The notes under the pieces: generated by a model | The model's input: the letters and a program-made list of their open reading frames with translations, nothing else | What the model was told of the DNA's origin: nothing | The model's database searches: none | Position numbers and translations under genes: made by a program | In this document: in pieces, positions 9,799 to 64,000 of the stretch | Layout of the letters: every line of letters starts with the position of its first letter | How positions within the stretch are numbered: the first letter of the stretch is position 1 | Assembly (NCBI GenBank): GCA_051251595.1 | Contig: JBPOFA010000016.1 | Span: 10,626-74,625 of the forward strand | Length of the DNA stretch: 64,000 nt | Reading direction: 5' to 3' | From: Marinosulfonomonas sp. | Lineage (GTDB): Bacteria > Pseudomonadota > Alphaproteobacteria > Rhodobacterales > Rhodobacteraceae

Positions 9799-9810
9799 CC
9801 ACTGTTCCTG

Positions 9811-31570: not shown

Positions 31571-31620
31571 AAACTACCGAAATGGTGGCGCAGCAGCGAA
31601 TGGCGGCTAAGAGCCCAAAC

Positions 31621-32175: not shown

Positions 32176-32340
32176 CACGGCCTCCCAAGATGTCGATGTG
32201 GCTACAGTTTTACATTGTCATTGGCCAAAGGGGAACAACAGACAACACAAGAACAACAGGCATAACAGTTTGAGCGCGTATCGGAAGCATGAGTCAGAAA
32301 ATTACTAGACACATGACACTATGTCATTTTATTTGACAGT

Positions 32341-49270: not shown

Positions 49271-50170
49271 TTATTTCCAGAGCCATGCAGCCCCGCGCAC
49301 GCCGCTGGAATCGCCGTGGACGGCCCGTTCAATCGGGGTGTGGAACACTGTTGAAAACGTGCGTTTGGCCAGTTCGCGGGGCAGGTCTGTGTAAAGCTCA
49401 TCCACATTTGACATGCCGCCGCCCATGACAAAAATATCCGGGTCCAGAGAATTCACCACGGTGGCCAACCCCCGGGCGACACGGTCAATATACTGATCCC
49501 ACAGCAGCCGCGACAGGTGGTCACCTGCGCGCATTTGTTCGATAATATCGCGCGATTTCATGGGGTTGCCGGTATGTGTTTCATAGCTGGCCTCAAAGGC
49601 GCGGCCGGACACCCAGGTTTCCATGCAGCCGTGACGGCCGCAGTAGCACGGCTTGCCCGGAAGCTCTGACACGGTTGGGAAGGGCAGCGGGTTATGGCCC
49701 CATTCGCCGCCGCTGTTGTTGGGCCCGTGATGCGCCTTGCCGCCCACGGCGATACCCGCGCCCGCGCCGGATCCAAGGATCACGGCAAAGACGACGTTAT
49801 GCCCGGCCCCGGCGCCGTCCACGGCCTCTGATGCGGCGAAACAGTCGGCGTCGTTTTCGACCCGCAGCTCTCTCTGGAGCACGTCATGCAGGTCTTTTTC
49901 CACGGGGCGGCCCAGCAACCAGGTTGAACTTGCGCCTTTGCCCAGACGGCTTTTGGGCTCTAGCGAACCGGGGATGCCGATGCCGACAGAACCGGTCTGG
50001 CCGGTCTTGCTTTCCAGCGCGTCGATCATGGTTTTGATGACTTTGATGCAGCCAAAATAATCGTGGCGCGGCGTGTCTTCGCGCAGGCGAAGCAGCTCTT
50101 GCCCGGTTTGATCCATCGCGACACCTTCGATTTTGGTGCCGCCCCAATCAATGCCAATCAACATGTTCAA
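49271..50170 (-). CDS. ROK family sugar kinase (NagK/Mak-like)
   Basis: N-terminal ATP motif IGIDWGGTK, catalytic ENDADCFA, and the ROK zinc motif GEWGH...CYCGRHGCMETWVSG. Confidence 0.85.
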   Translation of the reverse strand: MNMLIGIDWGGTKIEGVAMDQTGQELLRLREDTPRHDYFGCIKVIKTMIDALESKTGQTGSVGIGIPGSLEPKSRLGKGASSTWLLGRPVEKDLHDVLQRELRVENDADCFAASEAVDGAGAGHNVVFAVILGSGAGAGIAVGGKAHHGPNNSGGEWGHNPLPFPTVSELPGKPCYCGRHGCMETWVSGRAFEASYETHTGNPMKSRDIIEQMRAGDHLSRLLWDQYIDRVARGLATVVNSLDPDIFVMGGGMSNVDELYTDLPRELAKRTFSTVFHTPIERAVHGDSSGVRGAAWLWK

Positions 50171-50377
50171 TGTTCTTTCTGGGTTTGACGTCAGAGACTG
50201 AAACTTTTGTCCGTGTTTTCGGGCATAAGTGCTACCCGGCCCCTTGTCGGATGTCCATTTCTAATCGCGGGTGGTGTGCGTGTCACGCCGCAGGGCGGGG
50301 CATTTTATTTGCGGGGACAGGATGACGTGGGGCTTGCGGGGTCTTAGGTAGGTGGGATCAAAGTGGAAGGTGTGGTC

Positions 50378-51370
50378 ATGAAATACGGGTTGCTTGATTT
50401 GTCGCCGGTGCGCGCGGGTGGAACTGTGGCAGAGGCGCTGCAGACGACTGTTGCGCTGGCCCAAGAGGCCGAGGCGAATGGCTATCACCGGTTTTGGCTG
50501 GCCGAGCATCACAACATGCCGGGCATCGCCAGCGCGGCGACTGCTGTTGTGATCGGTCAGGTGGCGGCGGCGACCCGGACGATCCGTGTTGGCGCAGGGG
50601 GGGTCATGCTGCCCAACCATGCGCCTTTGATCGTTGCGGAACAGTTTGGCACGCTGGCCACGCTTTACCCGGATCGGATCGATCTGGGGTTTGGCCGTGC
50701 ACCGGGGACGGATGGAGCGACGGCCCATGCCTTGCGGCGCAATCGCGAGGCGAATGAAAGTTTCCCGCAGGATGTGGCAGAGGTGCTGGGATATTTCGGC
50801 GATAGCGTGGCGGCATCTGGTATTCGGGCCATTCCCGGGCAGGGGACCCATGTGCCGGTCTGGATCCTTGGGTCCAGTCTTTACGGGGCGCAGCTGGCGG
50901 CCTATCTGGGGTTGCCTTATGCGTTTGCGTCGCATTTCGCCCCTGCGATGCTAGAGGATGCAGCCCTGACCTATCGGCGGACCTTTCGTCCGTCAGAATG
51001 GCTGGCAGAGCCTTATTTCATGATGGCCGCCGGGGTCTGCGCGGCGGATACGGATGAAGAAGCGTTGTTCTTGCGCACGTCGCAAATCCAGGCCTTTGCA
51101 GCTTTGCGCACAGGCAAGCCGGGCGCTTTGCCGGCCCCGGTAGAAGATATCACGACAGTGGTGCCCGCCGGGGTTCTGGCGCAGGTGGGGCAGGCGTTTT
51201 CCTGCTCGGCCGTGGGCAGCGCGGCGTCGGTGCGCAAAGACCTAGAGGCATTGATCGCGCGGTATCAGCCGGATGAGCTGATCGTGACGGGTATGATCCA
51301 TGACGTTTCGGCGCATTTGAAATCCTATCGGATTGCGGCAGAGCAATTGCGCCACATCACCGGATCCTGA
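50378..51370 (+). CDS. LLM-class (luciferase-like) flavin-dependent oxidoreductase
   Basis: [11 protein letters not shown]...[20 protein letters not shown] is the typical N-terminus of the YhbW-like LLM subgroup. ATG at 50378; the track starts at 50363. Confidence 0.85.
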
Positions 51371-51404
51371 GCGACGGGCGTTAATTTCCGCCTAACGCGT
51401 CGTT

Positions 51405-52682
51405 TCAGCCCACAAATGACAGGGCCCAAGCCGCGGCGGCAGACAGGGCCAGCACCTGCGCGATGCCCAGCTTTGCCCGCAGCATCAGCACCGCCGACAA
51501 GACGGCAAGGGCCAAGGCCCGCCAGTCGAGTGAGGCCAAATCTGGTGTCCAGACCGTGAACGGGCCAAGGGTGTTTTGGCTCACCTCTGTGAACAAGACA
51601 TGCAGCCCGAACCAGATCGACAGGTTCAGGATGACGCCGACCACGGCGGCTGTGATGGCTTGCAACGCGCCGCTTAACCGGGGCTGGGCAGACATCCATT
51701 CGATGTAGGGCGCGCCGGTGAAGATCCACAGAAAACAGGGGATGAACGTGGCCCAGAGCGTGACGAGGCCGCCCAGTATGGCCAGCCCATAGCTGCCTTC
51801 GCGAAAGGCGGCGATGAAGCCGACGAATTGGGTGACAAGGATCAGCGGGCCGGGCGTGGTTTCGGCCAGCCCCAGCCCGTCCATCATTTCCGCCGGGGTG
51901 AGCCAGTTGAAATCGGTGACGACGACCTGCGCCATATAGGCCAGAACCGCGTAGGCCCCGCCAAATGTGACCACTGCCAGCTTGGAAAAGAAGACGCCCA
52001 GAGTGCCCAAGATTGCGCCGCCTGTGGCGATGTTCAGTGCCAGTATAGGCAGCAGCCAGATGGCCAGCCCAAGGGCCACGGTCACGCAGGTGCGTTTGAT
52101 GGATGTGGCCACGATTGGGGCGGTTTCCGGCATGTTCTGATCGTTGGCAAACACTGCGCCATAAAGGGCGGCGGCCAGAACGATCAGCGGGTAGGGCAGT
52201 GCAAGAAAGAAGATCCCGATAAAGGCCAATGCGGCGATGATCCAGTGGGCTTTGCGCTTTAGCGCGCGGCCTGAGACGCGCAAAAGCGCCTCTAGCACGA
52301 TGATCAGAACGGCGGCTTTGACGCCGAGAAACAGCGTCGCCACCAATGGCAGATCGCCATAGGTGACGTAAAGGGCTGCGAGGATGAAGATGACCACGGC
52401 GCCGGGTAGGACGAACAAAAGCCCGGCCAGAATGCCGCCGGCAATCCCGTGCAGACGCCAGCCGGAATAGGTGGCCAGCTGCATCGCTTCGGGGCCGGGC
52501 AGCAGCATGCAAAAGTTGAGAGCGTTCAGGAACTGGCGTTCTTGCAGCCATCCTTTTTCATCGACCAGCATGCGGTGCATCAGGGCGATCTGGGCGGCGG
52601 GGCCACCAAAGGAGAGAAGGCCGATTTTGAGGAAGACCGTAAAGAGTTCGGCCATCGTGACCGTGCTGTTGGGGCGGTTCAT
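51405..52682 (-). CDS. chrA: Chromate transporter (CHR family, ChrA)
   Basis: 425 aa duplicated CHR domain, with FLKIGLLSFGGPAAQIALM in the first half and KLAVVTFGGAYAVLAYM in the second. Confidence 0.9.
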   Translation of the reverse strand: MNRPNSTVTMAELFTVFLKIGLLSFGGPAAQIALMHRMLVDEKGWLQERQFLNALNFCMLLPGPEAMQLATYSGWRLHGIAGGILAGLLFVLPGAVVIFILAALYVTYGDLPLVATLFLGVKAAVLIIVLEALLRVSGRALKRKAHWIIAALAFIGIFFLALPYPLIVLAAALYGAVFANDQNMPETAPIVATSIKRTCVTVALGLAIWLLPILALNIATGGAILGTLGVFFSKLAVVTFGGAYAVLAYMAQVVVTDFNWLTPAEMMDGLGLAETTPGPLILVTQFVGFIAAFREGSYGLAILGGLVTLWATFIPCFLWIFTGAPYIEWMSAQPRLSGALQAITAAVVGVILNLSIWFGLHVLFTEVSQNTLGPFTVWTPDLASLDWRALALAVLSAVLMLRAKLGIAQVLALSAAAAWALSFVG

Positions 52683-52860
52683 TTTTGGGTGGGCCCGGCG
52701 TGCTGGCGGTGTATCGGCGGTGTCAAAACGAGTCTCTTCCCCAGATCAGAAACGAAGCGGCCCGATATGCGTCGGCGTGCCCTATGTGGCCCGGTTGCGG
52801 GTTGGGGAACTGTTCTCAACCCCGGTGGGTCTTGTCAACGCAATCTATGTAAAAACTGTG

Positions 52861-52904
52861 CTGCGTACGGTGGGCTGCGTGCGGTGGTTTTGTGTCTGCG
52901 TGCG
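52861..52904 (+). repeat. Cluster of three direct copies of CTGCGT(A/G)CGGTGG (third copy partial)
   Basis: Copies at 52861-52873 (CTGCGTACGGTGG), 52875-52887 (CTGCGTGCGGTGG) and 52896-52904 (CTGCGTGCG), in the chrA/ParB-like intergenic region. Confidence 0.6.
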
Positions 52905-53012
52905 AATCCCGAGGTTAACGTTTGAAAAGAAAGGGAAAACCACGGTCTGCCTTGCGTCGGCACCCTGTCGGCAAAGCGTATGGCACTTTGTCGGCTTTGA
53001 CCGGGGTTAAGC

Positions 53013-53025
53013 CTGCGTGCGGTGG
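53013..53025 (+). repeat. Fourth copy of CTGCGTGCGGTGG
   Basis: Exact 13-mer match to 52875-52887. It lies 62 nt upstream of the ParB-like start. Confidence 0.6.
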
Positions 53026-53086
53026 TGTTGGACATTTGTGGGGAATTGGGATGTGCTGCCAGTGTCGTCATCACGAAGGGCTTGGC

Positions 53087-53488
53087 ATGGAGCATCCAGA
53101 GGTTATCCGCGAATATTGGTATTCGATCGACTGGGATGTCGAGACGCTGTGGGCGTTGGACCTGCCGGTGGAGACGGTCGATCTGGCGCGTTTGATCTGG
53201 CATTTGGACGTGCCGATCTGGGCGGATGGGGGGCGGCCTTATTCTGTCACGCCGCGCCAGGTGATGGGGGACCCGGCCCGGTTTGCGGTGGAAGCGGCGC
53301 GGATCGCTGCGGCGGATTTGGCCTTTCCCCTAGAGGTTTTTGAAAACAAAGGCCGGTTGATGATTTTGGACGGTGTGCACCGGTTGGCAAGGGCCGTTGA
53401 GCTGGGCCATGACAGGATTAATGTGCGCTTTGTTCCGGCATCGGCGGTGACCCGTCTGGACGGCGATGCCGGGGCTTTGCCGGTTTAA
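53087..53488 (+). CDS. Small ParB/sulfiredoxin-like N-terminal-domain protein
   Basis: ORF 52922..53488. Start taken at ATG 53087 (MEHPEVIREYW), preceded by GAAGGG. The C-terminal half contains LMILDGVHRLARAVELG, resembling the ParB/Srx DGxHR box. The family call is tentative. Confidence 0.5.
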   Translation: MEHPEVIREYWYSIDWDVETLWALDLPVETVDLARLIWHLDVPIWADGGRPYSVTPRQVMGDPARFAVEAARIAAADLAFPLEVFENKGRLMILDGVHRLARAVELGHDRINVRFVPASAVTRLDGDAGALPV

Positions 53489-53517
53489 ATCGTAAAAAAT
53501 TTTGCAAAATGGTAAAC

Positions 53518-53534
53518 CTGACTAAAAAAGTCGG
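53518..53534. promoter_or_regulatory. IscR type-1 / Iron-Rhodo-box-like operator (cTGACT-aaaaa-AGTCgg)
   Basis: The GACT-N5-AGTC core (53520-53532) with an A/T spacer matches the core of the IscR type-1 consensus ATASYYGACTRWWWYAGTCRRSTAT. It sits in an AT-rich region 115 nt upstream of hemP. Confidence 0.45.
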
Positions 53535-53548
53535 ATTGACATATCCGA
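53531..53548. promoter_or_regulatory. Perfect 6-6-6 inverted repeat TCGGAT-tgacat-ATCCGA overlapping a TTGACA -35-like hexamer
   Basis: Read directly. It shares 4 nt with the preceding operator-like site. Confidence 0.35.
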
Positions 53549-53648
53549 TCAAATCACTCAGGTATGGAATCATTATTCTAGCCACCCAGTTCGCTGCGGA
53601 AGCCCGACATTGATGCAATGAAAGGAATCCGTTTATGGGGTATCGCAG

Positions 53649-53813
53649 ATGAGTGAGTTAAGAGACACAATCGTTACACCACCTGTGCTGGATATTCCCA
53701 CACATGACGCGCGGGAACTGACGCGGGGCGGGGATCAGGCGCAGATCGTCTATGACGACAAGGTCTATACGCTGCGCATCACGCGCGCAGGCAAGCTGAT
53801 TTTAACAAAATGA
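53649..53813 (+). CDS. hemP: Hemin uptake protein HemP family (54 aa; below the ORF-track cutoff)
   Basis: Hand translation gives MSELRDTIVTPPVLDIPTHDARELTRGGDQAQIVYDDKVYTLRITRAGKLILTK. The C-terminal Y-x-LRIT-x-x-GKLILTK is the HemP signature. The stop overlaps the next start (ATGA at 53810-53813). Confidence 0.7.
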   Translation: MSELRDTIVTPPVLDIPTHDARELTRGGDQAQIVYDDKVYTLRITRAGKLILTK

Positions 53814-54289
53814 CAGATCGGGTTCTTAATCGCGGCGGGGCGGCTGTCGGCTTTATGTCTGATTTGAATTCAGTCGAAGCAGCGACCGTGGACTGCCTGC
53901 GTCGGTGGAGCGATGGGCCAGAGGCCCAGGCCGATCTGTGGAATGACATGTCTTCGGCGATGGGGTCGCAAAACGCGCGACGCGCGGTGCAGTCTTTTGA
54001 TCAGCTTTACGGTTTATGTGCCCGGTTCGGGCGGCGCAAACTGATGCGTCATTCCGTGGCCTGCGAATGTCTGGGCGCTGACGAGGCGTGTTTTGCCAAT
54101 TTTATCGGGGCGGCGGCGGATGGCCAGCGCGAGGATGCAATGATGATTGCAACCCTGCTGGTGCGTGCGGATTACGCCCCAATCGTGACAACGCTGGCCA
54201 CGGATTTCGGCATGGCCTTGAGGCATCTGCCCTGTCCGGCAGGGCGTGCTGTTTTGATGGATACAAAAACAACCACAACTCTTCATTAG
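53810..54289 (+). CDS. Hypothetical protein with a His/Cys cluster (H81-x3-C-x-C-x5-C)
   Basis: 159 aa, translationally coupled to hemP and ending 10 nt before the imelysin gene. I recognise no family. Confidence 0.55.
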   Translation: MTDRVLNRGGAAVGFMSDLNSVEAATVDCLRRWSDGPEAQADLWNDMSSAMGSQNARRAVQSFDQLYGLCARFGRRKLMRHSVACECLGADEACFANFIGAAADGQREDAMMIATLLVRADYAPIVTTLATDFGMALRHLPCPAGRAVLMDTKTTTTLH

Positions 54290-54299
54290 AGGGACTAAT

Positions 54300-55562
54300 A
54301 TGAAGAAAATTTATTTATTGTCGTCGGTCTTTGGACTGGCGCTGGCGGCACCCGCATTTGCGGTCGAGAAATCAGCCGTTTTGGAAAATTACGCCAATAT
54401 GGCAGAGGCTGGATTTCAGGACAGTCTGATTGGTGCGGAGCGTTTGCAAGCCGCCGTGGCAGAGCTGGTCTCTGACCCGTCGGCAGAGCATTTGCAGGCG
54501 GCGCGGGATGCGTGGCTGGCTGCGCGCGTGTCCTACCAGCAGACAGAGGTGTTCCGTTTTGGCAATGCCGTCGTGGATGACTGGGAAGGCAAAGTGAATG
54601 CCTGGCCCTTGGACGAAGGTCTGATCGATTATGTGGACGGGTCTTATGGCGGTCCTTCGGATGAAAACGAATTTGCGGTTCTGAACGTGATTGCGAACCC
54701 GACATTCACCTTGTCTGGGAAAGAGATCGACGCCAGCAACATTACGCCGGCCCTGTTGTCGGACACTTTGCAAGAGGCCGACGGCATCGAAGCAAATGTT
54801 GCGACAGGGTATCACGCGATTGAGTTTTTGCTGTGGGGCCAGGATCTGAACGGCCACGCCCATGGGGCGGGCAACCGGCCTTGGACGGATTATGCAACGG
54901 GTGATGACTGCACGAACGGCAATTGCGACCGGCGCGGTGCTTATCTTGCTGCGGCGAGTGAATTGTTGGTGTCCGATCTGGACTATATGGTGGCGCAGTG
55001 GGGTGCGGATGGCATCGGGCGCACGACTTTGATGGACAACGAAGACAGCGGAATTTCCGCCATGCTGACCGGCATGGGATCCCTGTCTTATGGAGAGTTG
55101 GCCGGTGAGCGCATGCGTCTTGGCGTCATGCTGAACGATCCTGAAGAAGAGCAGGATTGTTTTTCTGACAACACCTATAACAGCCATTTCTACGACGTTC
55201 TGGGCGTTCAGAACGTCTATTTGGGGCGCTATGTGCGCAGCAATGGCGACGTCGTGACGGGGCCGTCCTTGTCGGATCTGGTTCTGGAAGTGAACCCAGA
55301 GCTGGACACTGAAATCCAGGTCAAGATCGGGGCGACGATCATGGCGATGACGCTGATGAAAACAGCGGCTGAGGCTGGCTTTTCTTACGACCAGATGCTG
55401 GAACGCGGCAATGTTGCGGGCGAGGCGTTGATCATGGGGGGCGTGGATGCGTTGGTCGATCACACGCGGTCGATTGAACGCGCGGTTTCGGCGCTTGGGC
55501 TGGACCAGATCGCCTTTGAGGGATCCGACAGTCTTGATGATCCAGACGCTGTGTTCCAGTAG
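54300..55562 (+). CDS. Imelysin family protein (peptidase M75-like / IrpA-type iron-regulated protein)
   Basis: Signal peptide MKKIYLLSSVFGLALAAPAFA and the imelysin GxHxxE motif in TGYHAIEFLLWGQD. Confidence 0.85.
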   Translation: MKKIYLLSSVFGLALAAPAFAVEKSAVLENYANMAEAGFQDSLIGAERLQAAVAELVSDPSAEHLQAARDAWLAARVSYQQTEVFRFGNAVVDDWEGKVNAWPLDEGLIDYVDGSYGGPSDENEFAVLNVIANPTFTLSGKEIDASNITPALLSDTLQEADGIEANVATGYHAIEFLLWGQDLNGHAHGAGNRPWTDYATGDDCTNGNCDRRGAYLAAASELLVSDLDYMVAQWGADGIGRTTLMDNEDSGISAMLTGMGSLSYGELAGERMRLGVMLNDPEEEQDCFSDNTYNSHFYDVLGVQNVYLGRYVRSNGDVVTGPSLSDLVLEVNPELDTEIQVKIGATIMAMTLMKTAAEAGFSYDQMLERGNVAGEALIMGGVDALVDHTRSIERAVSALGLDQIAFEGSDSLDDPDAVFQ

Positions 55563-55573
55563 GATTTTGAAAC

Positions 55574-57088
55574 GTGAAGTCAAATCTTCTGGCCTTTGCA
55601 GCCATTCTGATGGGGTCAGCCGTTTCGGCTGCCCCCACAGACGAGCCACATCTGAGCATAGTACCCCGGACTGAAAAAGAAGCAGCCCGGATTTCAGCCG
55701 TCACCAAACCCACCACGGATTTTTCCGCCGCTTCGAAATTCGAAGAGCGCCCGGGTGGGGCCGCGACGGTTCGGGTTCGTCCGAATGCGAATGCGTTTTC
55801 GCAATCTTCGGCGAACCTGAGTTTTGAAGATGAACTTAATTTTCGCGTCGGCAATGGGCTGTTTCGCAAGCTGTGGGTGTCTGCCCCATCTTCGACACTG
55901 GCCTCTGACGGGTTGGGGCCGATTTACAATGCCCGGTCCTGTCAGCGTTGCCATTTGAAGGACGGTCGCGGGCATCCGCCCGAAGGACCGGACGACAATG
56001 CAATTTCAATGTTTTTACGCATCTCAATTCCCGGTGGTCCGGATGATGGGATTGCCGAGATTGAAGATTACCTTGCCACTTTGCCAGACCCGCATTACGG
56101 CACCCAGATGCAGGATTTTTCTGTGGCGGGCGTGCCAGCCGAATACCGGTTGGACATCACATATGAAGACCTTCCGGTAACCTTGGCCGACGGCACGGTG
56201 GTTACCTTGCGCAAGCCTACCTATCGCGCCGAGGATCTGGGCTATGGGCCTTTGCATCCTGATGCGATGCTTAGCCCACGTGTCGCACCGCAGATGATCG
56301 GGCTGGGTTTGCTAGAGGCTATTCCAGCGGCTGATATTCTGGCCCATGCGGATCCGGATGATCTGGATGGGGATGGTATTTCGGGGCGTCCGAATATTGT
56401 GTGGTCCGATGAATATGACACGGCCATGCTGGGGCGTTTCGGGCTCAAGGCCGGTGCGCCAACGATCAAACAGCAATCCGCGGGGGCGTTCCGCGGGGAT
56501 ATTGGGATCGGGTCGCCTTTGTACCCGACACCGCAAGGGGAATGCACCGATTTGCAGACCGTGTGTCTGGATGCGCCAGACGGGGATACGGATGTTCCTG
56601 GCGTGGAAATCGATCAGGAAGGCTTGGACATGGTCACGTTCTATAGCCGCAACCTGGCGGTTCCGGCGCGCCGTGGTGTGAATGACCCAGAGGTGTTGCG
56701 TGGAAAAGAGATTTTCTACAACACCGGTTGCATATCCTGCCACACCCCATCTTTTGTGACGCATCGTCTGGAAGACCGGCCAGAGCAAAGCTTTCAGCTG
56801 ATCTGGCCTTACACAGACATGTTGCTGCATGACATGGGTGAAGGTCTGGCCGATCACCGCCCTGAAGCCCGCGCAACGGGCAGTGAATGGCGCACGGCAC
56901 CTTTGTGGGGTATCGGCTTGACGGAACAGGTCAGTGGGCACACATACTTTTTGCACGACGGACGCGCGCGCAACATCCTGGAAGCGGTGCTTTGGCACGG
57001 TGGAGAGGCGCAACCAATGCGTGACGCTGTCGTCGAACTTTCAAAATCTGACCGCGATGCTTTGATCGCTTACCTGGAAAGTCTGTAA
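55574..57088 (+). CDS. DUF1111 di-haem cytochrome c-type oxidoreductase (peroxidase-like)
   Basis: GTG start with signal peptide MKSNLLAFAAILMGSAVSA. Two CxxCH haem-binding motifs (CQRCH, CISCH). C-terminal WHGGEA is typical of DUF1111. Confidence 0.85.
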   Translation: MKSNLLAFAAILMGSAVSAAPTDEPHLSIVPRTEKEAARISAVTKPTTDFSAASKFEERPGGAATVRVRPNANAFSQSSANLSFEDELNFRVGNGLFRKLWVSAPSSTLASDGLGPIYNARSCQRCHLKDGRGHPPEGPDDNAISMFLRISIPGGPDDGIAEIEDYLATLPDPHYGTQMQDFSVAGVPAEYRLDITYEDLPVTLADGTVVTLRKPTYRAEDLGYGPLHPDAMLSPRVAPQMIGLGLLEAIPAADILAHADPDDLDGDGISGRPNIVWSDEYDTAMLGRFGLKAGAPTIKQQSAGAFRGDIGIGSPLYPTPQGECTDLQTVCLDAPDGDTDVPGVEIDQEGLDMVTFYSRNLAVPARRGVNDPEVLRGKEIFYNTGCISCHTPSFVTHRLEDRPEQSFQLIWPYTDMLLHDMGEGLADHRPEARATGSEWRTAPLWGIGLTEQVSGHTYFLHDGRARNILEAVLWHGGEAQPMRDAVVELSKSDRDALIAYLESL

Positions 57089-57089
57089 T

Positions 57090-58103
57090 ATGAAGACCCT
57101 GGCACTTGTTTTGGCATTGTCATTGCCCTCTGCGGCAATGGCGGATCACAGTGAAGACGTTGTTGAAAACGTTATTCAGCACCATATTTTGCCAGGGTTT
57201 GAACGGTTGAGTGAACAAGCAGATCGGCTGGCCGAGGTGGCTGGCCGATCTTGCAAAGCTGATAGCGCAGAGTTGCGCGCACAGTATCAGGATACGTTTG
57301 ACGCCTGGATCGCGGTCAGCCATTTGCGGTTCGGCCCGACAGAGGTTGACGACCGCGCTTTTGCGCTGGCGTTTTGGCCAGACAGCCGCGGGGCGACGCC
57401 CAAAGCGTTGAATGCGTTGATTGCGAACGAGGATCCGATTGCGGGTTCCGTTGAGGACTATGCCAGCGTGTCGATCGCCGCGCGTGGTTTTTATGCGTTG
57501 GAATTCTTGCTGTATGATCCGGTGATTTCGACGGAAGGGCAGGATGGCTATCGCTGTCAGCTGATCCAGACGGTGACCGCCGATATTGCCCAAAACGCGG
57601 ATGAAATTCTGGACGATTGGGAAAATGGCTATGCGGCGTTGCTGATGGATGTGGATGGCAGCGGGCTTTATCGAAGTGAAGAGGAAGCCGCGCAGGAATT
57701 GTTCAAGGCGCTGTCGGCGGGTTTGGAATTCACCTCTGAGACGCGGCTGGGACGCCCGATGGGAACCTATGACAGACCGCGCCCGAAACGGGCGGAAAAC
57801 TGGCGGTCGGGACGGTCTTTGCGGAATGTTTATGTTTCCATTGAAAGCCTGAAGGGGCTGGCCGTGGCCTTGTCCGACGATGATCCCGAACTTACCGGGG
57901 AACTGGTCGAGGCTTTTGACGAAAGCCTTGAGCAGGCTCAAAAACTGGACGACCCGATCTTTGCGGGTGTGGCAACACCAAAAGGACGGTTTCGGGTTGA
58001 ATTGCTGAAGAACTCTATCGAGCAGGTACGCCATGTGGTCCGGGATGAACTGGGCCCAAGTCTGGGCGTGGCGTCTGGGTTCAACGCGATGGATGGAGAC
58101 TGA
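57090..58103 (+). CDS. Imelysin family protein, second copy (motif His replaced)
   Basis: Signal peptide MKTLALVLALSLPSAAMA. The homologous motif reads RGFYALEFLLYDP: the Glu is kept and the His is replaced by Tyr. Confidence 0.8.
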   Translation: MKTLALVLALSLPSAAMADHSEDVVENVIQHHILPGFERLSEQADRLAEVAGRSCKADSAELRAQYQDTFDAWIAVSHLRFGPTEVDDRAFALAFWPDSRGATPKALNALIANEDPIAGSVEDYASVSIAARGFYALEFLLYDPVISTEGQDGYRCQLIQTVTADIAQNADEILDDWENGYAALLMDVDGSGLYRSEEEAAQELFKALSAGLEFTSETRLGRPMGTYDRPRPKRAENWRSGRSLRNVYVSIESLKGLAVALSDDDPELTGELVEAFDESLEQAQKLDDPIFAGVATPKGRFRVELLKNSIEQVRHVVRDELGPSLGVASGFNAMDGD

Positions 58104-58105
58104 TC

Positions 58106-59176
58106 ATGGCCAACAGACGGCAGTTTTTGGCGGGGCTTTTGGCCGCTGGAATGGTTCCCAAGCCCAGCTGGGCGGATGCCGGTGGGCCGGCCTATTTGTC
58201 GGCAGCGGGCTTGCCAAGCGGCGGCTATGCCCTGTGCGGGATCGGCGCGAACCGGGAGGTTCTGTTCCAGATCACCTTGCCCAGCCGGGGCCATGCCGCA
58301 GCGGCACATCCCACAAGGCCAGAGGCCGTCGCTTTTGCCCGGCGTCCGGGGACCTTTGCGATCGTTTTGGACTGTTCTGATGGTCGGGTGAAAACCAGGC
58401 TTGAATCCCCAGAGGGGCGGCATTTTTACGGGCATGGGGCGTTTTCCGGCGATGGGCAATGGCTGTTCACGACGGAGAATGACTATGAGGCGGCAGAAGG
58501 GCGCATTGGCGTTTGGGACGTGGCTGCAGGCTATGCCCGCGTGGATGAGTTTGCCAGCGGGGGCACCGGCCCCCATGATTTGAAACGCCTGCCGGGATCA
58601 GAGGTTCTGGTTGTGGCCAATGGTGGGATTGAAACCCATCCCGATGCGGGACGGGCCAAGTTGAACATCGCGACGATGCAACCCAATCTCAGCTATCTGG
58701 AAGACGGGCAGGTGGTGGAACAGGCGCGTCTGTCCCCCGATCTGCATCGCAACTCCATACGGCATCTGGCGGTGTCAGAGACCGGGCAGGTTGCGTTTGG
58801 GATGCAATGGCAGGGCGATGGCGCTGCGCCTGCGCTTGTTGGGCTGCACCGTCGCGGTGCAGAGGTTCAGCTGTTTGACAGCCCCGAGGAGGAGCTGCAT
58901 CGCATGGGCAATTACATCGGCAGCATTGCCTTTTCAGAGGATGAAAGCCGGGTTGCTGTGACCTCTCCGCGGGGGGGGCGGGTGCAGCAATTCGATGTTG
59001 AAACCGGGGTTTTCGCCGCCGGTCTGGATATTGAGGATGCCTGCGGTGTCGCAGCACAGCAGGGCGGTTTTGTTGTCACCACCGGGCAGGGCAATATTGA
59101 TGCGGTCACGGGCCAGCAGATTACGCCGTTTCAGGTGCGCGATCTGATGTGGGACAATCATTTGATCCCGGTTTGA
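58106..59176 (+). CDS. DUF1513 domain-containing protein (Tat-exported, beta-propeller-like)
   Basis: Twin-arginine signal MANRRQFLAGLLAAGMV. Its size and its position as the last gene of the imelysin/DUF1111 cluster are typical of DUF1513. Confidence 0.8.
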   Translation: MANRRQFLAGLLAAGMVPKPSWADAGGPAYLSAAGLPSGGYALCGIGANREVLFQITLPSRGHAAAAHPTRPEAVAFARRPGTFAIVLDCSDGRVKTRLESPEGRHFYGHGAFSGDGQWLFTTENDYEAAEGRIGVWDVAAGYARVDEFASGGTGPHDLKRLPGSEVLVVANGGIETHPDAGRAKLNIATMQPNLSYLEDGQVVEQARLSPDLHRNSIRHLAVSETGQVAFGMQWQGDGAAPALVGLHRRGAEVQLFDSPEEELHRMGNYIGSIAFSEDESRVAVTSPRGGRVQQFDVETGVFAAGLDIEDACGVAAQQGGFVVTTGQGNIDAVTGQQITPFQVRDLMWDNHLIPV

Positions 59177-59281
59177 TCCTGGTCGCTGTTTGCGGCTAGG
59201 CCCAAACGGGTTGAGTGTGCCTGAAGGCTGTTCTATTGGCAGGGAAAGGGGCGGTTTGCCCTGCCAAACAGGGGCCGTGTG

Positions 59282-59773
59282 ATGAAAGACGTTCGAATTG
59301 TCGTAACCGGTGGAACCATCGACAAAATCCATGACCCGGCGACAGAGTCCCTCGCTTTTGCCGCGGATGGCAGCACGCATTTGCCAGAGATCCTGTCGAT
59401 GAGCCGCTGTCACTTTCCCACGGTCGATCTGTTGATGCTGAAAGACAGCCTGTATTTCGATGACGCCGACCGCGAGGCGATCACCGACGCGGTTCGAAAC
59501 GCACCGGAACAGGCCATTGTTGTCACCCACGGCACCGGCACGATGGGGGAAACAGCCCGCTGGCTTGCGCCGCGCATCACCGGTAAAACCGTTGTGCTGA
59601 CCGGGGCAATGCGCCCGCATTCGCTAAGCTTTTCTGACGGGCCGTTTAATCTGGGCGGCGCCATTGTGGCGGCGCAGATCATGGATGCGGGGATTTACGG
59701 CGTGATGAATGGCCGTGTGTTCCACGCCGAAGAGCTGAACAAAAACACAGAGCTGGGCCGGTTTGACGCCTGA
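59282..59773 (+). CDS. Asparaginase N-terminal-domain-only protein
   Basis: 163 aa. MKDVRIVVTGGTIDK carries the asparaginase TGGTI nucleophile motif and HGTGTM follows. No C-terminal domain is present. Confidence 0.65.
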   Translation: MKDVRIVVTGGTIDKIHDPATESLAFAADGSTHLPEILSMSRCHFPTVDLLMLKDSLYFDDADREAITDAVRNAPEQAIVVTHGTGTMGETARWLAPRITGKTVVLTGAMRPHSLSFSDGPFNLGGAIVAAQIMDAGIYGVMNGRVFHAEELNKNTELGRFDA

Positions 59774-59895
59774 ACGGCTGATGTCAGCGCATCCCAAATT
59801 TTTACAGTCGTTTTGGGGTGTGGGTCTTGATCGTGTTACAACTAGAGGCTTTCACTGGCCCCATCACAAAGCCTTTCATTCTGGAGATTGAATTC

Positions 59896-61077
59896 ATGAA
59901 ACGAATTTCCGCAGGTGTCATCGCAAGTTTTTTGATTGCACCCCTTCCTGGACACGCACAGGAGCTTAGGACGGATGAAGGCACGCCGGCCGGGCTTGAG
60001 ACAGAGGCATGGTCCAGCTATGAGGATTTCCTGAACCGCACCAAATTCAAAAGCTTTTACGGGCAATTGAGCCTGGGGACGCTGATCTATGACGATGGCG
60101 TGCAGACCAAGGGCTATCCGGTTCTGGACAATGGCAATTCGGGCACTCGTTTTGGGTTCGTCGTCTCCTCGACAGAGCTGTTGGACGATTGGCGCGTGTC
60201 TGGCCATTTCGAAATGAGCGTTGCGACGGTTTCCACCTCTGGGGCGAATGTCATCAGTCTGAACCCGGATTACGGTCTGGACGTGTTCGGGTTGCGGATT
60301 GCTGAACTGACATTTCAAAGTGACAGCTACGGCAAGATCTGGGTCGGGCAAGGGGCCATGGCATCGGATGGGGCCTCTGGCGTTGACCTGTCTGGAACCA
60401 CGATCGTTGCCAGTTCCTCTGTTGCGGATAGTGCAGGGGGGCAGTTGCTGCGCACCACAGGCGGGGCGGTGTCGAACATTGCGATTGGGGATAGCTTTGC
60501 GATTGACAGCGGGCTAAGCCGGAAATTGCGCCTGCGCTATGGCACGCCTGATCTTGGCGGCTTTGATCTGCGCGGGTCGGTTGGCTACGACGCGCTGAAC
60601 AATGACACAACGGTGCTGTATGACCTTGCGGCGGTGTTCGGCGGGTCCGCAGGCGTGGGAGAGGCCTATTCCTACAGGGCGGCTGTGGCGGTGTCCAAGC
60701 CGGCAAGCTCTGACGCTTTGGTCAACGGATCGGTGTCGGTGCTGCATGAACCCACAGGGCTAAGCCTGACCGGCGCGATGGCGGCAGAGTATCACACGGA
60801 CAGAACCGGGCGCTATTCCTTCGTGAAGGCGGGGTATCAAAAGCAGTTCTTTGACGTGGGCGCCACGGCGTTTTCGGTGGATGCGTATTTCGGCAGCGAC
60901 ATCGACGCGCCGGGGGCGGACAGCCGGTCTTATGCCTTGTCCGTTGTGCAAAACTACGACCGCACCAAAGCAGAGATCTACGGCACGGTGCGCAGCTATG
61001 ACTATTCCAATTCCAGCGGCTCTGTCGGCTACCGCAACGGCCTTGCCGTGTTTACGGGGCTGCGCCTGAAGTTCTGA
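59896..61077 (+). CDS. Outer-membrane porin
   Basis: ORF 59818..61077. Start at ATG 59896, preceded by GGAG. Signal peptide MKRISAGVIASFLIAPLPGHAQE, alternating beta-strand pattern rich in G/S/Y/D, and C-terminal LRLKF. Confidence 0.75.
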   Translation: MKRISAGVIASFLIAPLPGHAQELRTDEGTPAGLETEAWSSYEDFLNRTKFKSFYGQLSLGTLIYDDGVQTKGYPVLDNGNSGTRFGFVVSSTELLDDWRVSGHFEMSVATVSTSGANVISLNPDYGLDVFGLRIAELTFQSDSYGKIWVGQGAMASDGASGVDLSGTTIVASSSVADSAGGQLLRTTGGAVSNIAIGDSFAIDSGLSRKLRLRYGTPDLGGFDLRGSVGYDALNNDTTVLYDLAAVFGGSAGVGEAYSYRAAVAVSKPASSDALVNGSVSVLHEPTGLSLTGAMAAEYHTDRTGRYSFVKAGYQKQFFDVGATAFSVDAYFGSDIDAPGADSRSYALSVVQNYDRTKAEIYGTVRSYDYSNSSGSVGYRNGLAVFTGLRLKF

Positions 61078-61104
61078 GCGGCCTTTGAGTTTGGAGGGAT
61101 AAGC

Positions 61105-61135
61105 CGGGCGCGCATCTGCGTGGCCCGTTTTTTTT
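61105..61135 (+). terminator. Intrinsic terminator of the porin gene
   Basis: CGGGC...GCCCG stem with an internal GCG/CGC mini-stem, followed by T8 (61128-61135). Confidence 0.6.
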
Positions 61136-61153
61136 GTTTTGGTCTGAGGCGGG

Positions 61154-61171
61154 AAAAGGACCGTCGAAGCG
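61154..61171 (+). repeat. Left copy of the 18-bp direct repeat AAAAGGACCG(T)CGAAGCG flanking the Abi mini-island
   Basis: 17/18 identity with 62083-62100. Here the copy is truncated so that the hairpin's right arm is missing. Confidence 0.7.
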
Positions 61172-61212
61172 TTGATATTTAATCTAGGTTTTTCATTTTA
61201 TCTACGTAGGAT

Positions 61213-61986
61213 ATGCGGATGCTTGGAACTTACACAGAAGAATTACCTGATACGCCTTTGGAACGAGCGTTATTGTTGAAAAGACAGATCGAAGCTGTAG
61301 GAACTGAGGGGGCGTTTGCTGAACCCATCTACAGGCAACTTCGCGGCGAATTCATTGGCGACCCGCTCTTGAAAAAACTTATCCCGGCATTTGTCGTACG
61401 CTGCCGTGATCAAAATTGCTTGTGGGCTGAATTGAAGGCCGTTCACGAAGGCAGCGGTGCATATGCTGCACGGAGGCTTTTTCTGAACGAACAATTTTCA
61501 CCGCTTCTTGATTTCCTTGAGACCGGCGGAAGTGCGGCTGACGCTGCCATTACTGATGGTCTTAAGGAATATGACGCGCCTGCTGTGCAGTCTGTTTGGA
61601 CCAAAGCTCTTGAGCGCAGGTCGTCAGACCCCCAAGGGGCTGTTACCGCCGCCTGTACACTTCTCGAAGAAGTCTGCAAGCACATCATTGAAGACAGTGG
61701 CGGGACGTGGGAAGACACATCGAACATTCCAAAGCTGTATGGTGAAGCAGCCAAGGTGCTCGACCTTGCGCCGAACCAGCATCAGGCTAAGATTTTTAAA
61801 ACTATCCTTGGCAATAGCCAAAGTATCGTCAATAGCATTGGGGCACTTCGGAATAAAGGAAGTGATGCTCATGCTGGCGGCAGGGACAGGGTGCCTTTCA
61901 AGCCCCGACATGCTGCTCTTGCAGTCAACTTGGCCGGATCTATGGCCCTTTTCCTTATTGAGACATGGCAAGAGCGCGATCTGTAG
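61213..61986 (+). CDS. Abortive-infection-like protein with C-terminal Abi_C/HEPN-type domain
   Basis: 257 aa, AT-richer. The C-terminal segment ILGNSQSIVNSIGALRNKGSDAHAGG carries an R-x6-H HEPN-like motif as in Abi_C (AbiJ-type) domains. I do not recognise the N-terminal ~130 aa. Confidence 0.65.
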   Translation: MRMLGTYTEELPDTPLERALLLKRQIEAVGTEGAFAEPIYRQLRGEFIGDPLLKKLIPAFVVRCRDQNCLWAELKAVHEGSGAYAARRLFLNEQFSPLLDFLETGGSAADAAITDGLKEYDAPAVQSVWTKALERRSSDPQGAVTAACTLLEEVCKHIIEDSGGTWEDTSNIPKLYGEAAKVLDLAPNQHQAKIFKTILGNSQSIVNSIGALRNKGSDAHAGGRDRVPFKPRHAALAVNLAGSMALFLIETWQERDL

Positions 61987-62082
61987 CGTCAGAGTTATTG
62001 GAACCTGTCGCCCTACAACTTGCCCGTTCAGATTCCGGAAGCAGTTCTTGACGGCTGCAGCCAATCTATACCCCCAAACAGC

Positions 62083-62100
62083 AAAAGGACCGCCGAAGCG
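62083..62100 (+). repeat. Right copy of the 18-bp direct repeat (AAAAGGACCGCCGAAGCG)
   Basis: Forms part of the complete tRNA-Gly terminator hairpin. Confidence 0.7.
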
Positions 62101-62105
62101 GTCCC
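62087..62105 (-). terminator. Intrinsic terminator downstream of tRNA-Gly
   Basis: The minus strand reads GGGACCGC-ttcg-GCGGTCC followed by TTTTGCTGTTT, about 30 nt after the tRNA 3' end. Confidence 0.7.
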
Positions 62106-62134
62106 GTTTGTCGCTGATACATTCAGCTGAAAAT

Positions 62135-62209
62135 TGGAGCGGGCGAAGAGATTCGAACTCTCGACCCTAACCTTGGCAAGGTTATGCTCTACCCCTGAGC
62201 TACGCCCGC
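62135..62209 (-). tRNA. tRNA-Gly (anticodon GCC), CCA encoded
   Basis: The minus strand reads GCGGGCGTAGCTCAGGGGTAGAGCATAACCTTGCCAAGGTTAGGGTCGAGAGTTCGAATCTCTTCGCCCGCTCCA. It has a 7-bp acceptor stem, a D-loop AGCTCAGGGGTAGAGC, anticodon loop CTTGCCAAG and T-arm GAGAGTTCGAATCTCTT. Confidence 0.95.
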
Positions 62210-62350
62210 GTCCATTGGGTGTGCAGCAGATATTCAGTCTGGGCGCGGGCTGCAAGTAAAAAAAGCATCTCGGGCGAAAAATTTGCGCTTTTTTTCGGGT
62301 GGGCGATTTTTGGTGCCTGTGGGGCTGGGGAAAGGCCCGGGGAGGGGTGT

Positions 62351-62737
62351 TTAGAATATGGCGTGGGTGACGTTGGCGATGGCGGTGATAAAAATCATGC
62401 CCACGGTCAGGTACATGCCCCAGACCCGCAGGAACGGGATTTGAGGGGTGCTGCCCAGCCCGATGGCATGCAGGACGCGCCCTAAAAGCAGTGCGATCCC
62501 AGAGACATGCACCAGCCAGCCGGGCATGCCCTGGATTTCGGCCATGGCCAGCAGGATGATCCCGAGGGGCGCATACTCGGCACAGTTTGCCTGCACGCGC
62601 ATGCGTTTTTCCATGTCTTTGTCATCGCCGTCCCCGATCGAGATGCGCAGGTTGCGGCGGCCCAGGACGACCCGGTAGCTGATGGCAAGAAAGAGCAGGG
62701 CGATCAGCCCCGCATAGATCGGTGTGATGGCAAGCAT
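62351..62737 (-). CDS. MAPEG family membrane protein
   Basis: 128 aa with four hydrophobic helices. N-terminus MLAITPIYAGLIALLFLAISYRVVLGRR and the AEYAPL segment are typical of bacterial MAPEG proteins. Confidence 0.7.
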   Translation of the reverse strand: MLAITPIYAGLIALLFLAISYRVVLGRRNLRISIGDGDDKDMEKRMRVQANCAEYAPLGIILLAMAEIQGMPGWLVHVSGIALLLGRVLHAIGLGSTPQIPFLRVWGMYLTVGMIFITAIANVTHAIF

Positions 62738-62782
62738 GTGTCTGACCCCTATGCTGTTTTGTTCAGCATAGGGGCAGATCGC

Positions 62783-64000
62783 TTAGCTTTCCAGTTCGAC
62801 GAGCAAATCCTTGGCGTCGATCTGGGTTCCGGGCTGGACCAGCACGGCTTTGACGGTTGCGTCGCGTTCGGCGTGGATGCCGGTTTCCATCTTCATTGCC
62901 TCGATGGTGAGCAGCAGGTCGCCCTGTTTCACCTTGGCCCCGGCCTGGGTTGCGACAACGGCGACGACGCCGGGCATCGGCGCGCCGATATGGTCGGCAT
63001 TGCCCAGTTCGGCTTTGGGGTTGGCGGCGGTTTTGGCCGTCGCTTTGCGGTCGGTCACGCGGACGACGCGGGGTTGGCCGTTCAGTTCGAAAAAGACCTT
63101 GGCTTCGCCTTCTTCATTGGTCTCGCCCACGGCCTGACAGCGGATTTCGAGCGTCACGCCGGGGTCGATTTCTGTTGAGATTTCCTCTCCGGCTGACATG
63201 CCGTAGAAATAGGTGTGCGTGGGCAGGGTTCTGACCGGGCCATAGGTTGCGTGGCGGTTCATGTAGTCGGTGAAGACCTTGGGGTACATGAGGTAGCCGT
63301 TCAGGTCTTCGTCATCGATAGCGATCCCGTCGAGCTTGGCAGAGACCTCTGCGCGGGCCTCTTCCAGATCGACCGGGGGCAGGTGTTTGCCGGGGCGTTC
63401 GACCGAGGGCTTTTCGGATTTAAGCACCTTTTTGACGATGCCTTTGGGCCAGCCGCCCGGAGGTTGCCCCAGATTGCCGCGCATCATGTCGATGACGCTG
63501 TCGGGGAAGGACAGGTCTGTGTTCGGGTCTTCGACCTGTTCGCGGGTCAGGTTCTGGCTGACCATCATCAGCGCCATGTCGCCCACCACTTTGGAGCTTG
63601 GCGTCACTTTGACGATATCACCGAACATTTTGTTCACGTCGGCATAGGTCTGCGCGACCTCGTGCCAGCGGTCTTCCAGCCCAAGCGAGCGGGCCTGCGC
63701 CTTGAGGTTGGTGAACTGGCCGCCGGGCATTTCGTGCAGGTAGACTTCGGAGGCGGGGGCTTCGATCCCGGATTCAAAGGCGGCGTATTGCTGGCGCACG
63801 GCCTCCCAGTAGTTGGAGATTTCGCGGATCGCGCCGACGTCAAGGCCCGGGTCGCGGTCTGTGTGTTTCAGCGCCTCGACGATAGAGCCCATGCAGGGCT
63901 GGGATGTGCCGCCGGAAAACGCATCCATGGCGGCATCGACGGCATCGACGCCGGCCTCTGTCGCGGCAAGCACAGTCGCGGCAGACAGGCCGGACGTGTC
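62783..64000 (-). CDS. pyc: Pyruvate carboxylase, C-terminal part (gene continues beyond the window)
   Basis: The frame is open to position 64000. Contains the carboxyltransferase/tetramerisation region (AGVDAVDAAMDAFSGGTSQPCMGSIVEAL) and the C-terminal biotinyl domain with EAMKME. Confidence 0.9.
   Translation of the reverse strand, partial: DTSGLSAATVLAATEAGVDAVDAAMDAFSGGTSQPCMGSIVEALKHTDRDPGLDVGAIREISNYWEAVRQQYAAFESGIEAPASEVYLHEMPGGQFTNLKAQARSLGLEDRWHEVAQTYADVNKMFGDIVKVTPSSKVVGDMALMMVSQNLTREQVEDPNTDLSFPDSVIDMMRGNLGQPPGGWPKGIVKKVLKSEKPSVERPGKHLPPVDLEEARAEVSAKLDGIAIDDEDLNGYLMYPKVFTDYMNRHATYGPVRTLPTHTYFYGMSAGEEISTEIDPGVTLEIRCQAVGETNEEGEAKVFFELNGQPRVVRVTDRKATAKTAANPKAELGNADHIGAPMPGVVAVVATQAGAKVKQGDLLLTIEAMKMETGIHAERDATVKAVLVQPGTQIDAKDLLVELES

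Follow-up and report, generated by a model that had tools for sequence, protein, structure and literature searches.

Hot spots without mobile-element genes, turned over by recombination at flanking core genes, have been described (PMC5635113; PMC10121019). Foreign DNA can also be taken up by homology-facilitated illegitimate recombination, in which one side is anchored by homology and the other is an illegitimate join (PMC3240628). In the AbiJ family, an N-terminal domain is proposed to sense a phage cue and to restrain a C-terminal RNase (PMC3710099), and the mechanism of AbiJ itself is still unresolved (PMC13064643). Here we describe a locus from a Marinosulfonomonas sp. contig (JBPOFA010000016.1). 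The window, i.e., the whole stretch of DNA analysed, is 64 kb long, and the loci of relatives compared with it are labelled L001 onwards. A segment of 937 bp (61134-62070; hereafter the islet) with a single AbiJ-like gene (hereafter the Abi gene) lies in the window between the convergent terminators of a porin gene and a tRNA-Gly gene. At about even confidence, we read it as a single-gene defence islet, non-autonomous and gained by horizontal transfer, which host recombination placed in a recombination hot spot flanked by a tRNA gene.

The islet is an indel relative to a sister lineage, is compositionally foreign, and encodes no recombinase. A porin homologue (P0122, 87% amino acid identity) led to six contigs of that lineage (L006-L011). 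In L006 and L008, a MAPEG gene is found 351 bp after the porin gene, and between the two there is a tRNA-Gly gene identical to that of the window at 75/75 positions, with the same terminator and no Abi gene. By blastn, L006 1-11238 aligns with window positions 49910-61133 (88.2%) and L006 11254-13183 with 62071-64000 (95.8%), which leaves 937 bp of the window (61134-62070) opposite 15 bp in L006 (CCATGTCATGGCCAC). This 15-bp filler has no match anywhere in the islet. An allele in which the porin terminator is followed by the tRNA-Gly terminator had been proposed as a check in an initial annotation of the window, and L006-L011 supply it. Exact-protein look-up also retrieved the filled locus from two metagenomes, one copy being 100% identical to the window (L001) and the other 99.7% (L002); the same look-up returned no match for a 257-aa open reading frame (ORF) and only the same contig for the porin. 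The window and L002 differ at three positions over 1,144 bp (61231, 61417, and 61724). All three differences are nonsynonymous and fall in the Abi gene (Y5D, C67S, N169S), with none in the flanks, which hints at diversifying or relaxed selection, in numbers too small for a test.

The G + C content of the islet (0.503 over 61134-62070) is below that of the window (0.559) and in the lowest 3% of 937-bp windows. At third codon positions (GC3) the Abi gene stands at 0.484, compared with 0.59-0.81 in the neighbouring genes. The islet holds one credible ORF, that of the Abi_C protein, with 47 bp upstream of it (to the left repeat described below), 84 bp downstream within the islet, and 96 bp from the stop codon to the right repeat; there is no space for a second gene. 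Inspection of the ORFs of the islet and its surroundings (58-64 kb) revealed neither an integrase nor a transposase, and an Rfam search for small RNAs or an antitoxin RNA returned the tRNA as its sole match. The start codon at 61219 has an AGGA motif 7 nt upstream and is the one chosen by gene callers. The initial annotation had described an AT-richer segment that codes for an Abi/HEPN gene alone, without mobility or antitoxin genes, and these features stand. It had also given the segment its own promoter-like region, for which a consensus scan offered no support: no sigma-70-type promoter was detected in the islet. By eye, a TTGATA-18-TTTTAT arrangement is present and fails the scan rule of an A at position 2 of the -10 hexamer.

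A third haplotype was found through a look-up of the MAPEG protein. On the right-hand side of the tRNA, contig L005 and the window share 98.8% identity. Past the 3′-end of the tRNA it carries a gene for an AT3-SGNH acyltransferase, with no terminator hairpin, Abi gene, or porin gene. Its tRNA-Gly(GCC) has four pairwise-compensatory differences, located in the anticodon and T stems. It looks as if the 3′ two-thirds of the tRNA and its flank had been replaced, as by an integrating element or a recombination breakpoint within the tRNA. Because the relationship ends within the tRNA, beyond which the DNA is unrelated, the site qualifies as a real hot spot, which the initial annotation had also taken it for, and the tRNA is a synteny breakpoint. 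There are thus three haplotypes between conserved flanks, these being the porin gene on one side and the tRNA-Gly, MAPEG, and pyc genes on the other: one with the Abi gene (window, L001, L002), one empty (L006-L011), and one with the acyltransferase gene (L005). Content that differs between conserved flanks without mobility genes is one mark of hot spots free of mobile elements. More distant MAPEG relatives were tried as a route to further haplotypes and abandoned, as at 84-88% identity the tRNA-Gly gene no longer adjoins the MAPEG gene. The window belongs to a Rhodobacteraceae/Paracoccaceae lineage. The nearest named MAPEG homologue is from Marinosulfonomonas (72% identical), and in species-representative genomes the sole match to the porin is from Hyphomicrobium (28%).

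Two 18-bp direct repeats, DR-L on the left and DR-R on the right, are found at the locus (Table 1). They are identical at 17/18 positions and are the only two matches in the 64 kb at up to three mismatches (0.10 expected; 0/100 shuffles gave two). DR-R is integral to the intact tRNA-Gly terminator, whose hairpin was recovered by a terminator scan and folds at -23.2 kcal/mol (z = -4.0). DR-L ends after GCG and does not fold (z = +0.6). Read on the plus strand, the tRNA-Gly terminator hairpin has a folding energy of -16.6 kcal/mol and a weak T-run, and it probably also stops the convergent Abi transcript. The GGACCGC/GCGGTCC stem occurs in no other predicted terminator of the window. The repeats and their identity, the position of DR-R in an intact hairpin, and the break of the left copy after GCG had all been noted in the initial annotation, and each was recovered. 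Its interpretation of them, as the 18-bp duplication that bounds a 911-bp insertion in the right arm of the hairpin, does not agree with the empty allele: the indel is 937 bp versus 15 bp, and the intact hairpin plus 12 nt is continuous with the empty allele. DR-L falls within the indel (61134-62070), and DR-R is 12 nt beyond its border. On the right, the match with the empty allele starts 12 nt left of DR-R and is then 100% through the terminator into the first bases of the tRNA (62140, the end of the query). On the left, identity stops in the T-run of the porin terminator (61133). Neither DR-L nor the 17 nt to its left is represented in the empty allele. After a clean target duplication or an att event, the empty allele would be expected to consist of the left flank of DR-L, the repeat, and the right flank of DR-R. 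What is found is the left flank of DR-R, the repeat, and the right flank of DR-R. Since the 12-nt spacer is shared with the empty allele, the right breakpoint is to the left of the spacer and not at the repeat. The mismatch of the flanks, as read from the sequences, may mean either that DR-L arrived with the insert or that the pre-insertion spacer of the window's own lineage differed. The sister lineage is ~12% diverged on the left and may therefore misrepresent that site.

In the initial annotation, an 18-mer that proved to be a common repeated word in the genome would have counted against the duplication. It is unique in the window, in favour of the claim, and it is common in unrelated phage genomes, which weakens it. 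Its exact C-variant was found in 62 IMG/VR viral contigs, in at least 10 unrelated contexts, where it is always followed by [GA]TCC and so forms a complete UUCG-tetraloop terminator. These contigs were considered as carriers of attP sites and rejected, being ordinary terminators with no tRNA-Gly gene near the 18-mer in the 11 scanned. Because the 18-mer is a generic UUCG-loop terminator word in phages, the likeness of the two copies is weaker evidence of a duplication. The cut-off copy at the edge of the islet still marks a breakpoint inside a terminator. The metagenomic (Logan) contig L002 ends inside DR-R at window position 62090 (…AGCAAAAGGAC), and L001 ends inside the tRNA; the break of L002 in the repeat could reflect population-level variation at the junction or low coverage.

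Table 1. Coordinates of the features at the islet locus (window positions unless L005 is named).
Feature	Position	Strand	Remarks
Asparaginase-like gene, 163 aa	59282-59773		
Porin gene	59896-61077		
Porin intrinsic terminator, hairpin and T8 run	61105-61135	+	Stem 61109-61122 and T-tail by terminator scan; fold of 61090-61175
Islet by comparison, 937 bp	61134-62070		In window, L001, and L002; versus 15 bp in L006-L011
Left flank of DR-L, 17 nt, GTTTTGGTCTGAGGCGGG	61137-61153		Between porin T-run and DR-L
Left repeat DR-L, AAAAGGACCGtCGAAGCG	61154-61171	+	Cut-off U-run, 3′ arm, and loop of a tRNA-Gly-type terminator
AT-rich leader of Abi gene	61172-61218	+	TTGATA at 61172-61177; Shine-Dalgarno AGGA at 61208-61211
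Abi gene, 255-aa AbiJ-like protein	61219-61986	+	N-terminal helical domain and C-terminal HEPN (Abi_C), R211-x6-H218
3′ untranslated part of islet	61987-62070	+	Without homologue in any related locus
12-nt spacer, CCCCCAAACAGC	62071-62082		Directly left of DR-R; 100% common to empty allele
Right repeat DR-R, AAAAGGACCGcCGAAGCG	62083-62100	+	Integral to intact tRNA-Gly terminator
tRNA-Gly intrinsic terminator, GGGACCGC-TTCG-GCGGTCC-TTTT	62083-62107	-	Hairpin at 62105-62086 by terminator scan
tRNA-Gly(GCC)	62135-62209	-	ARAGORN and Rfam; convergent with Abi gene
tRNA-Gly(GCC) of L005	688-762 (L005)		Corresponds to window 62135-62209
AT3-SGNH O-acyltransferase gene of L005	815-2191 (L005)		Corresponds in position to window leftwards of the tRNA

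By domain and motif, the encoded protein is assigned to the Abi_C/AbiJ HEPN family and has an undescribed N-terminal domain. The Pfam family Abi_C (PF14355) matches residues 171-248 over its full profile (1-83/83) with 71.9 bits, against a cut-off of 24, and the AbiJ model of PADLOC matches at 2.6e-20, aligned to residues 122-250 only. Residues R211, N212, D216, A217, and H218, which make up the HEPN R-x6-H motif, are invariant in an alignment of 35 sequences. The AlphaFold model is all-alpha (pLDDT 82). Its meaningful Foldseek neighbours in the PDB are exclusively HEPN proteins, namely sacsin (3o10; prob 0.75, TMt 0.52), AF_0298 (2hsb; prob 0.57, TMt 0.65), and Csm6, all with E > 1, and a sequence-profile search of the PDB gave no match. 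The first ~120 residues are confidently helical in the model. Even with the threshold relaxed to E = 10, Pfam offered no match to the N-terminal 125 residues, not even among the N-terminal domains described for AbiJ, and Foldseek and the PDB profile search were likewise empty for this part; full-length similarity to an AbiJ with one of the N-terminal domains NTD1-5 was thus not found. From membership of this family we infer that the protein acts in phage defence and has RNase activity.

Homologues of the Abi protein are numerous (1,455 at E <= 1e-3) and mostly from Rhodobacteraceae, at 55-65% identity. Relatives with up to 48% identity are carried by 175 plasmids. The nearest homologues are from other genera and lie in unrelated contexts. 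The closest, at 80% (L003), is N-terminally truncated by ~14 codons and adjoins a response-regulator fragment. As judged by eye (9773-10000 and 10915-10945), this fragment is from the N-terminal part of a regulator resembling CtrA, and downstream of the homologue there is an IstB fragment of an IS21 insertion sequence (IS) and a sequence of ~30 nt resembling a tRNA 3′-end (…GAGTTCGAGTCCCTTCACCCGCACCA), ~200 bp from the gene. The source of L003 is a metagenome-assembled genome, and a chimeric assembly is possible. A 70% homologue (L012-L015) is convergent to a tRNA-Gly(GCC) gene that is identical to that of the window at 75/75 positions (noted for L013), on a contig with a G + C content of 0.49. 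The same type of cargo thus occurs at another tRNA-Gly locus, as the initial annotation had suggested looking for. Between this homologue and the tRNA there is an inverted 5′ half of tRNA-Gly that runs through the anticodon loop with small deletions (L012 1783-1825; L013 1588-1630), which might be what is left of an earlier inversion or integration that broke within the anticodon loop. No flanking repeats were found at L012-L015 or at the other tRNA-adjacent loci.

The association with tRNA genes extends beyond tRNA-Gly. A tRNA gene is found within 600 bp downstream of the homologue in 6/68 locus groups (Gly, Gln, Glu, Lys, and Pro, the last twice in related loci), and all six are convergent. 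At an assumed typical density of one tRNA per 80 kb, the six tRNAs in the 33.4 kb surveyed compare with ~0.42 expected, a ~14-fold excess (P ~5e-6, or ~7.5e-5 with five independent cases). A 43% homologue in L070 (3634-4852) lies between convergent tRNA-Leu(GAG) and tRNA-Pro(GGG) genes, 38 nt from the latter; this copy has an in-frame stop (…AW*KAVQ…) and is a pseudogene. Other settings are of different kinds. In Thalassovita gelatinovora (L159; CP051181.1, 8001-8771), a 63% homologue stands alone, with era/DUF1491 on one side and recO on the other, in a conserved lepB-rnc-era-recO neighbourhood with no mobility gene or tRNA within 8 kb. In Phaeobacter inhibens (L158; CP081262.1, 6456-10787), a 62% homologue is found in a defence island together with GmrSD_N, an IS1595 transposase, an HNH protein, and a 210-aa tyrosine recombinase. 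This island is directly downstream of an orthologue (61% identity, same length) of the asparaginase-like gene of the window, and the region downstream of that core gene may be a hot spot across genera. The non-coding ends of the islet were compared with ~95 related loci and showed no nucleotide homology outside the coding sequence, which argues against an element with conserved ends that moves the gene. Peptide patterns of the Abi protein were not found in viral contigs, and a protein search of phage records gave partial, distant matches only.

The locus was also compared with known classes of mobile elements. An integrase-mediated tRNA island was rejected: there is no integrase ORF in the islet or among those inspected next to it, the repeats are not of the 3′ part of the tRNA, and no second copy of the 3′ part of tRNA-Gly or other tRNA fragment was found in the 64 kb at up to three mismatches. 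The empty site expected of such an island is present in L006-L011. A transposon, IS, or miniature inverted-repeat transposable element was rejected, as there are no terminal inverted repeats and no transposase ORF, and repeat pairs in the islet are at chance level. An integron cassette does not fit either, since the left border (GCG|TTGATA) departs from TTRRRY, the right border has no GTT, and no imperfect-palindrome attC is found downstream of the ORF. Tn7-like elements, IS200/IS605 elements, and group II introns were rejected in the absence of the respective element ends, transposase, reverse transcriptase, and matching RNA families.

Placement by host recombination would require no element-encoded machine. 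One crossover would have been homologous, in the conserved block that comprises the 12-nt spacer, the terminator, and tRNA-Gly (identity of 100% over 62071-62140). At the other end, the T-run of the porin terminator would have been joined illegitimately or through a very short stretch of homology, and 15 bp of target would have been lost. Alternatively, a conspecific strain with the islet already in place could have been the donor of the complete arrangement, taken over by homologous recombination. DR-L would be a relic on the incoming DNA, an older breakpoint in a terminator of the same generic UUCG-loop type, and not a fresh duplication. The choice of the spot could potentially be explained by insulation, as a toxic gene that is placed between two terminators and convergent to a tRNA would be shielded from the read-through of strongly expressed neighbours. 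The convergent orientation of all six tRNA-adjacent homologues fits this idea. The N-terminal helical domain would keep the HEPN RNase (R211-x6-H218) silent until a phage cue is received, RNA cleavage would then abort the infection, and a separate antitoxin would be unnecessary.

Recombination by the host needs the fewest events, and several points weigh against it. No donor locus was found; it would be recognised by the word GTTTTGGTCTGAGGCGGGAAAAGGACCGTCGAAGCG in another context. The relic explanation of DR-L shifts the origin of the repeat to an unseen donor. A repeat that is direct, identical at 17/18 positions, unique in the window, and broken within a hairpin in one copy is what an att-type event would be expected to leave behind. 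At 4-fold sites, the sister lineage diverges by 0.17-0.43 left of the islet and by 0.12-0.15 right of it; the lower value on the right fits a recombination tract and equally a stronger codon bias (GC3 0.79-0.81 on the right). The empty allele is from a lineage that is ~12% diverged on the left, and the window's own lineage may have had a different spacer before the insertion. Finally, the defence function and RNase activity of the protein are presumed from its family membership.

The main rival is that the repeats are the attL and attR left by a site-specific, tyrosine-type event in which a circular Abi cassette recombined with the hairpin of the tRNA-Gly terminator, the recombinase being supplied in trans by a resident element; we regard this as unlikely. 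The attP of the cassette would read ...CCCCCAAACAGC-AAAAGGACCGCCGAAGCG-TTGATA..., and from the T/C difference between the repeats the crossover would fall within the final 7 nt (CGAAGCG). This model predicts a naive site ...GGTCTGAGGCGGG-AAAAGGACCG(T/C)CGAAGCG-GTCCC... (search word GGTCTGAGGCGGGAAAAGGACCG[CT]CGAAGCGGTCCCGTTTG) and a circular junction CCCCCAAACAGC-AAAAGGACCGCCGAAGCG-TTGATATT (search word CCCCCAAACAGCAAAAGGACCGCCGAAGCGTTGATATTTAATC). Besides the properties of the repeat, the break of the left copy falls inside a hairpin, i.e., an inverted repeat as in the core sites of tyrosine recombinases, the Phaeobacter inhibens homologue adjoins such a recombinase, and integrase-less elements flanked by att sites are known (PMC5704250). 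However, a cassette with att repeats at its exact borders fails against the empty allele, itself ~12% diverged, which lacks the outer left flank of DR-L and yet has the 12 nt that would be assigned to the cassette, so that at least one extra event is needed. Moreover, the ORFs inspected at 58-64 kb, in the islet and next to it, include no recombinase, the other ORFs of the window having been listed and not annotated. Conserved cassette ends were seen in none of ~70 related loci, and comparable repeats at none of the other tRNA-adjacent homologues. The target would also be a lineage-specific terminator, absent even from the 99%-identical L005, and not the conserved tRNA.

Two further histories are less likely, given that the gene is of foreign composition and that debris is absent. 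A larger, integrase-bearing island at or near tRNA-Gly could have been reduced by deletions until the Abi gene and a single partial copy of an att site or terminator were left, which we consider somewhat less probable still than the cassette. Homologues do occur in multi-gene islands with a recombinase and IS, as in Phaeobacter inhibens downstream of the asparaginase-like orthologue, and both the tRNA 3′-end-like fragment of L003 and the inverted tRNA-Gly half of L012/L013 would suit such an origin. However, no pseudogene debris is present in the 47 bp before the ORF or the 84 bp after it, the window contains no tRNA fragment, and the repeat is in a terminator and not in a tRNA. It is improbable that the Abi gene was ancestral at the site and was lost by deletion in the sister lineage, the empty site being secondary. 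The empty allele retains the 12 nt that adjoin the islet in the window and has 15 bp of unmatched filler, and just one empty lineage was found, all of which such a loss would accommodate. The GC3 of the Abi gene is nevertheless far below that of every neighbour, its nearest homologues are in other genera and unrelated contexts, the empty allele is not a product of recombination between the two repeats, and the filler matches nothing in the islet. No more credible is the view that the two 18-mers are independent terminators of one generic type, alike by convergence and recording no event. It draws on the 62 viral contigs, in which the exact 18-mer always belongs to a complete hairpin in at least 10 unrelated contexts. 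It is opposed by the absence of the stem from all other terminators of the window, by the expectation of 0.1 matches at up to three mismatches, and by the left copy itself, which is cut off and non-functional and, as a broken terminator at the edge of the islet, still implies a breakpoint.

A more general possibility, which we consider highly speculative, is that terminator hairpins downstream of tRNAs act as attachment sites for a trans-acting recombinase that shuttles defence cassettes composed of a promoter and one gene, in the manner of integrons without a platform. If true, such a system would explain both the repeat in a broken hairpin and the ~14-fold excess of Abi genes beside convergent tRNAs.

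Two other patches of low G + C content were observed in the window. The lowest (0.476; 11641-12950) comprises a GntR/FCD regulator gene (11641-12357, minus strand) and the intergenic region before an SBP_bac_5 solute-binding protein gene. The second lowest (0.48; 31450-33012) comprises a chloramphenicol-phosphotransferase-like (CPT-like) P-loop kinase gene (31621-32178, minus strand) and a divergent TetR/EthR-type regulator gene (32341-33012, plus strand), and may be another small acquired module.

The islet illustrates how small a defence island can be, with one gene in 0.94 kb and no mobility genes. Gene-sized defence islets at such hot spots are already known, and this locus is at the small extreme of the class. 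Filled, empty, and alternative alleles are found together at one tRNA-flanked site in an uncultured Rhodobacteraceae lineage. The locus supports the view that much of the turnover of defence genes in marine bacteria may proceed by host recombination at anchors such as tRNAs and not by self-mobile elements, and it points to sites insulated by terminators as places where toxic single-gene systems settle. The cut-off terminator copy is a searchable footprint and could tell whether joins inside terminators recur in gene capture. The protein represents a clade of AbiJ-type HEPN proteins with an undescribed N-terminal domain and more than 1,400 relatives.

In comparison with described systems, the protein is like the AbiJ/Abi_C HEPN proteins, such as Lactococcus AbiJ (Anantharaman et al. 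2013, PMC3710099), in its C-terminal Abi_C/HEPN domain with R-x6-H, in being encoded by a single gene with a non-catalytic N-terminal domain, and in the occurrence of the family on plasmids and in variable regions. Unlike them, its N-terminal 120 residues match no described AbiJ-NTD family, and a phenotype is not known for its alphaproteobacterial clade. With cis-mobilizable elements (CIMEs), which are decayed integrative and conjugative or integrative and mobilizable elements (ICEs/IMEs) that keep attL and attR (PMC5704250), the islet shares the lack of a recombinase and a direct repeat with one copy lying in the 3′ region of a conserved locus. However, the indel has its borders elsewhere, and the repeat sits in a lineage-specific terminator instead of the end of a tRNA gene; no cognate integrase-bearing element was found in a tRNA-fragment search of the 64-kb window or in the 62 viral contigs with the 18-mer. 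tRNA-integrating islands and prophages, as PMC10121019 presents them from Williams (2002), resemble the locus in being strain-specific and on the 3′ side of a tRNA, the 3′ part of which is replaced in L005. The islet differs from them in having no integrase, a repeat that is not tRNA sequence (DR-R sits 35-52 nt past the tRNA 3′-end), and a length of 0.94 kb. Homology-facilitated illegitimate recombination (PMC3240628) would account for a conserved block of 100% identity over 62071-62140 on one side and a non-homologous join with 15 bp of target lost on the other; for the islet the process is deduced from the junctions, and the experiments were made in other bacteria outside this group. Set beside the hot spots free of mobile genetic elements (PMC5635113) and the defence hot spots of E. 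coli (PMC10121019), the islet is unusual in consisting of one gene in 0.94 kb and in bearing, at the edge away from the tRNA, a cut-off copy of the adjacent terminator, which is a footprint undescribed for hot spots of this kind, and it shares with them conserved flanks, in this case around three contents, the absence of integrase and transposase genes, a defence cargo, and a tRNA at the border.

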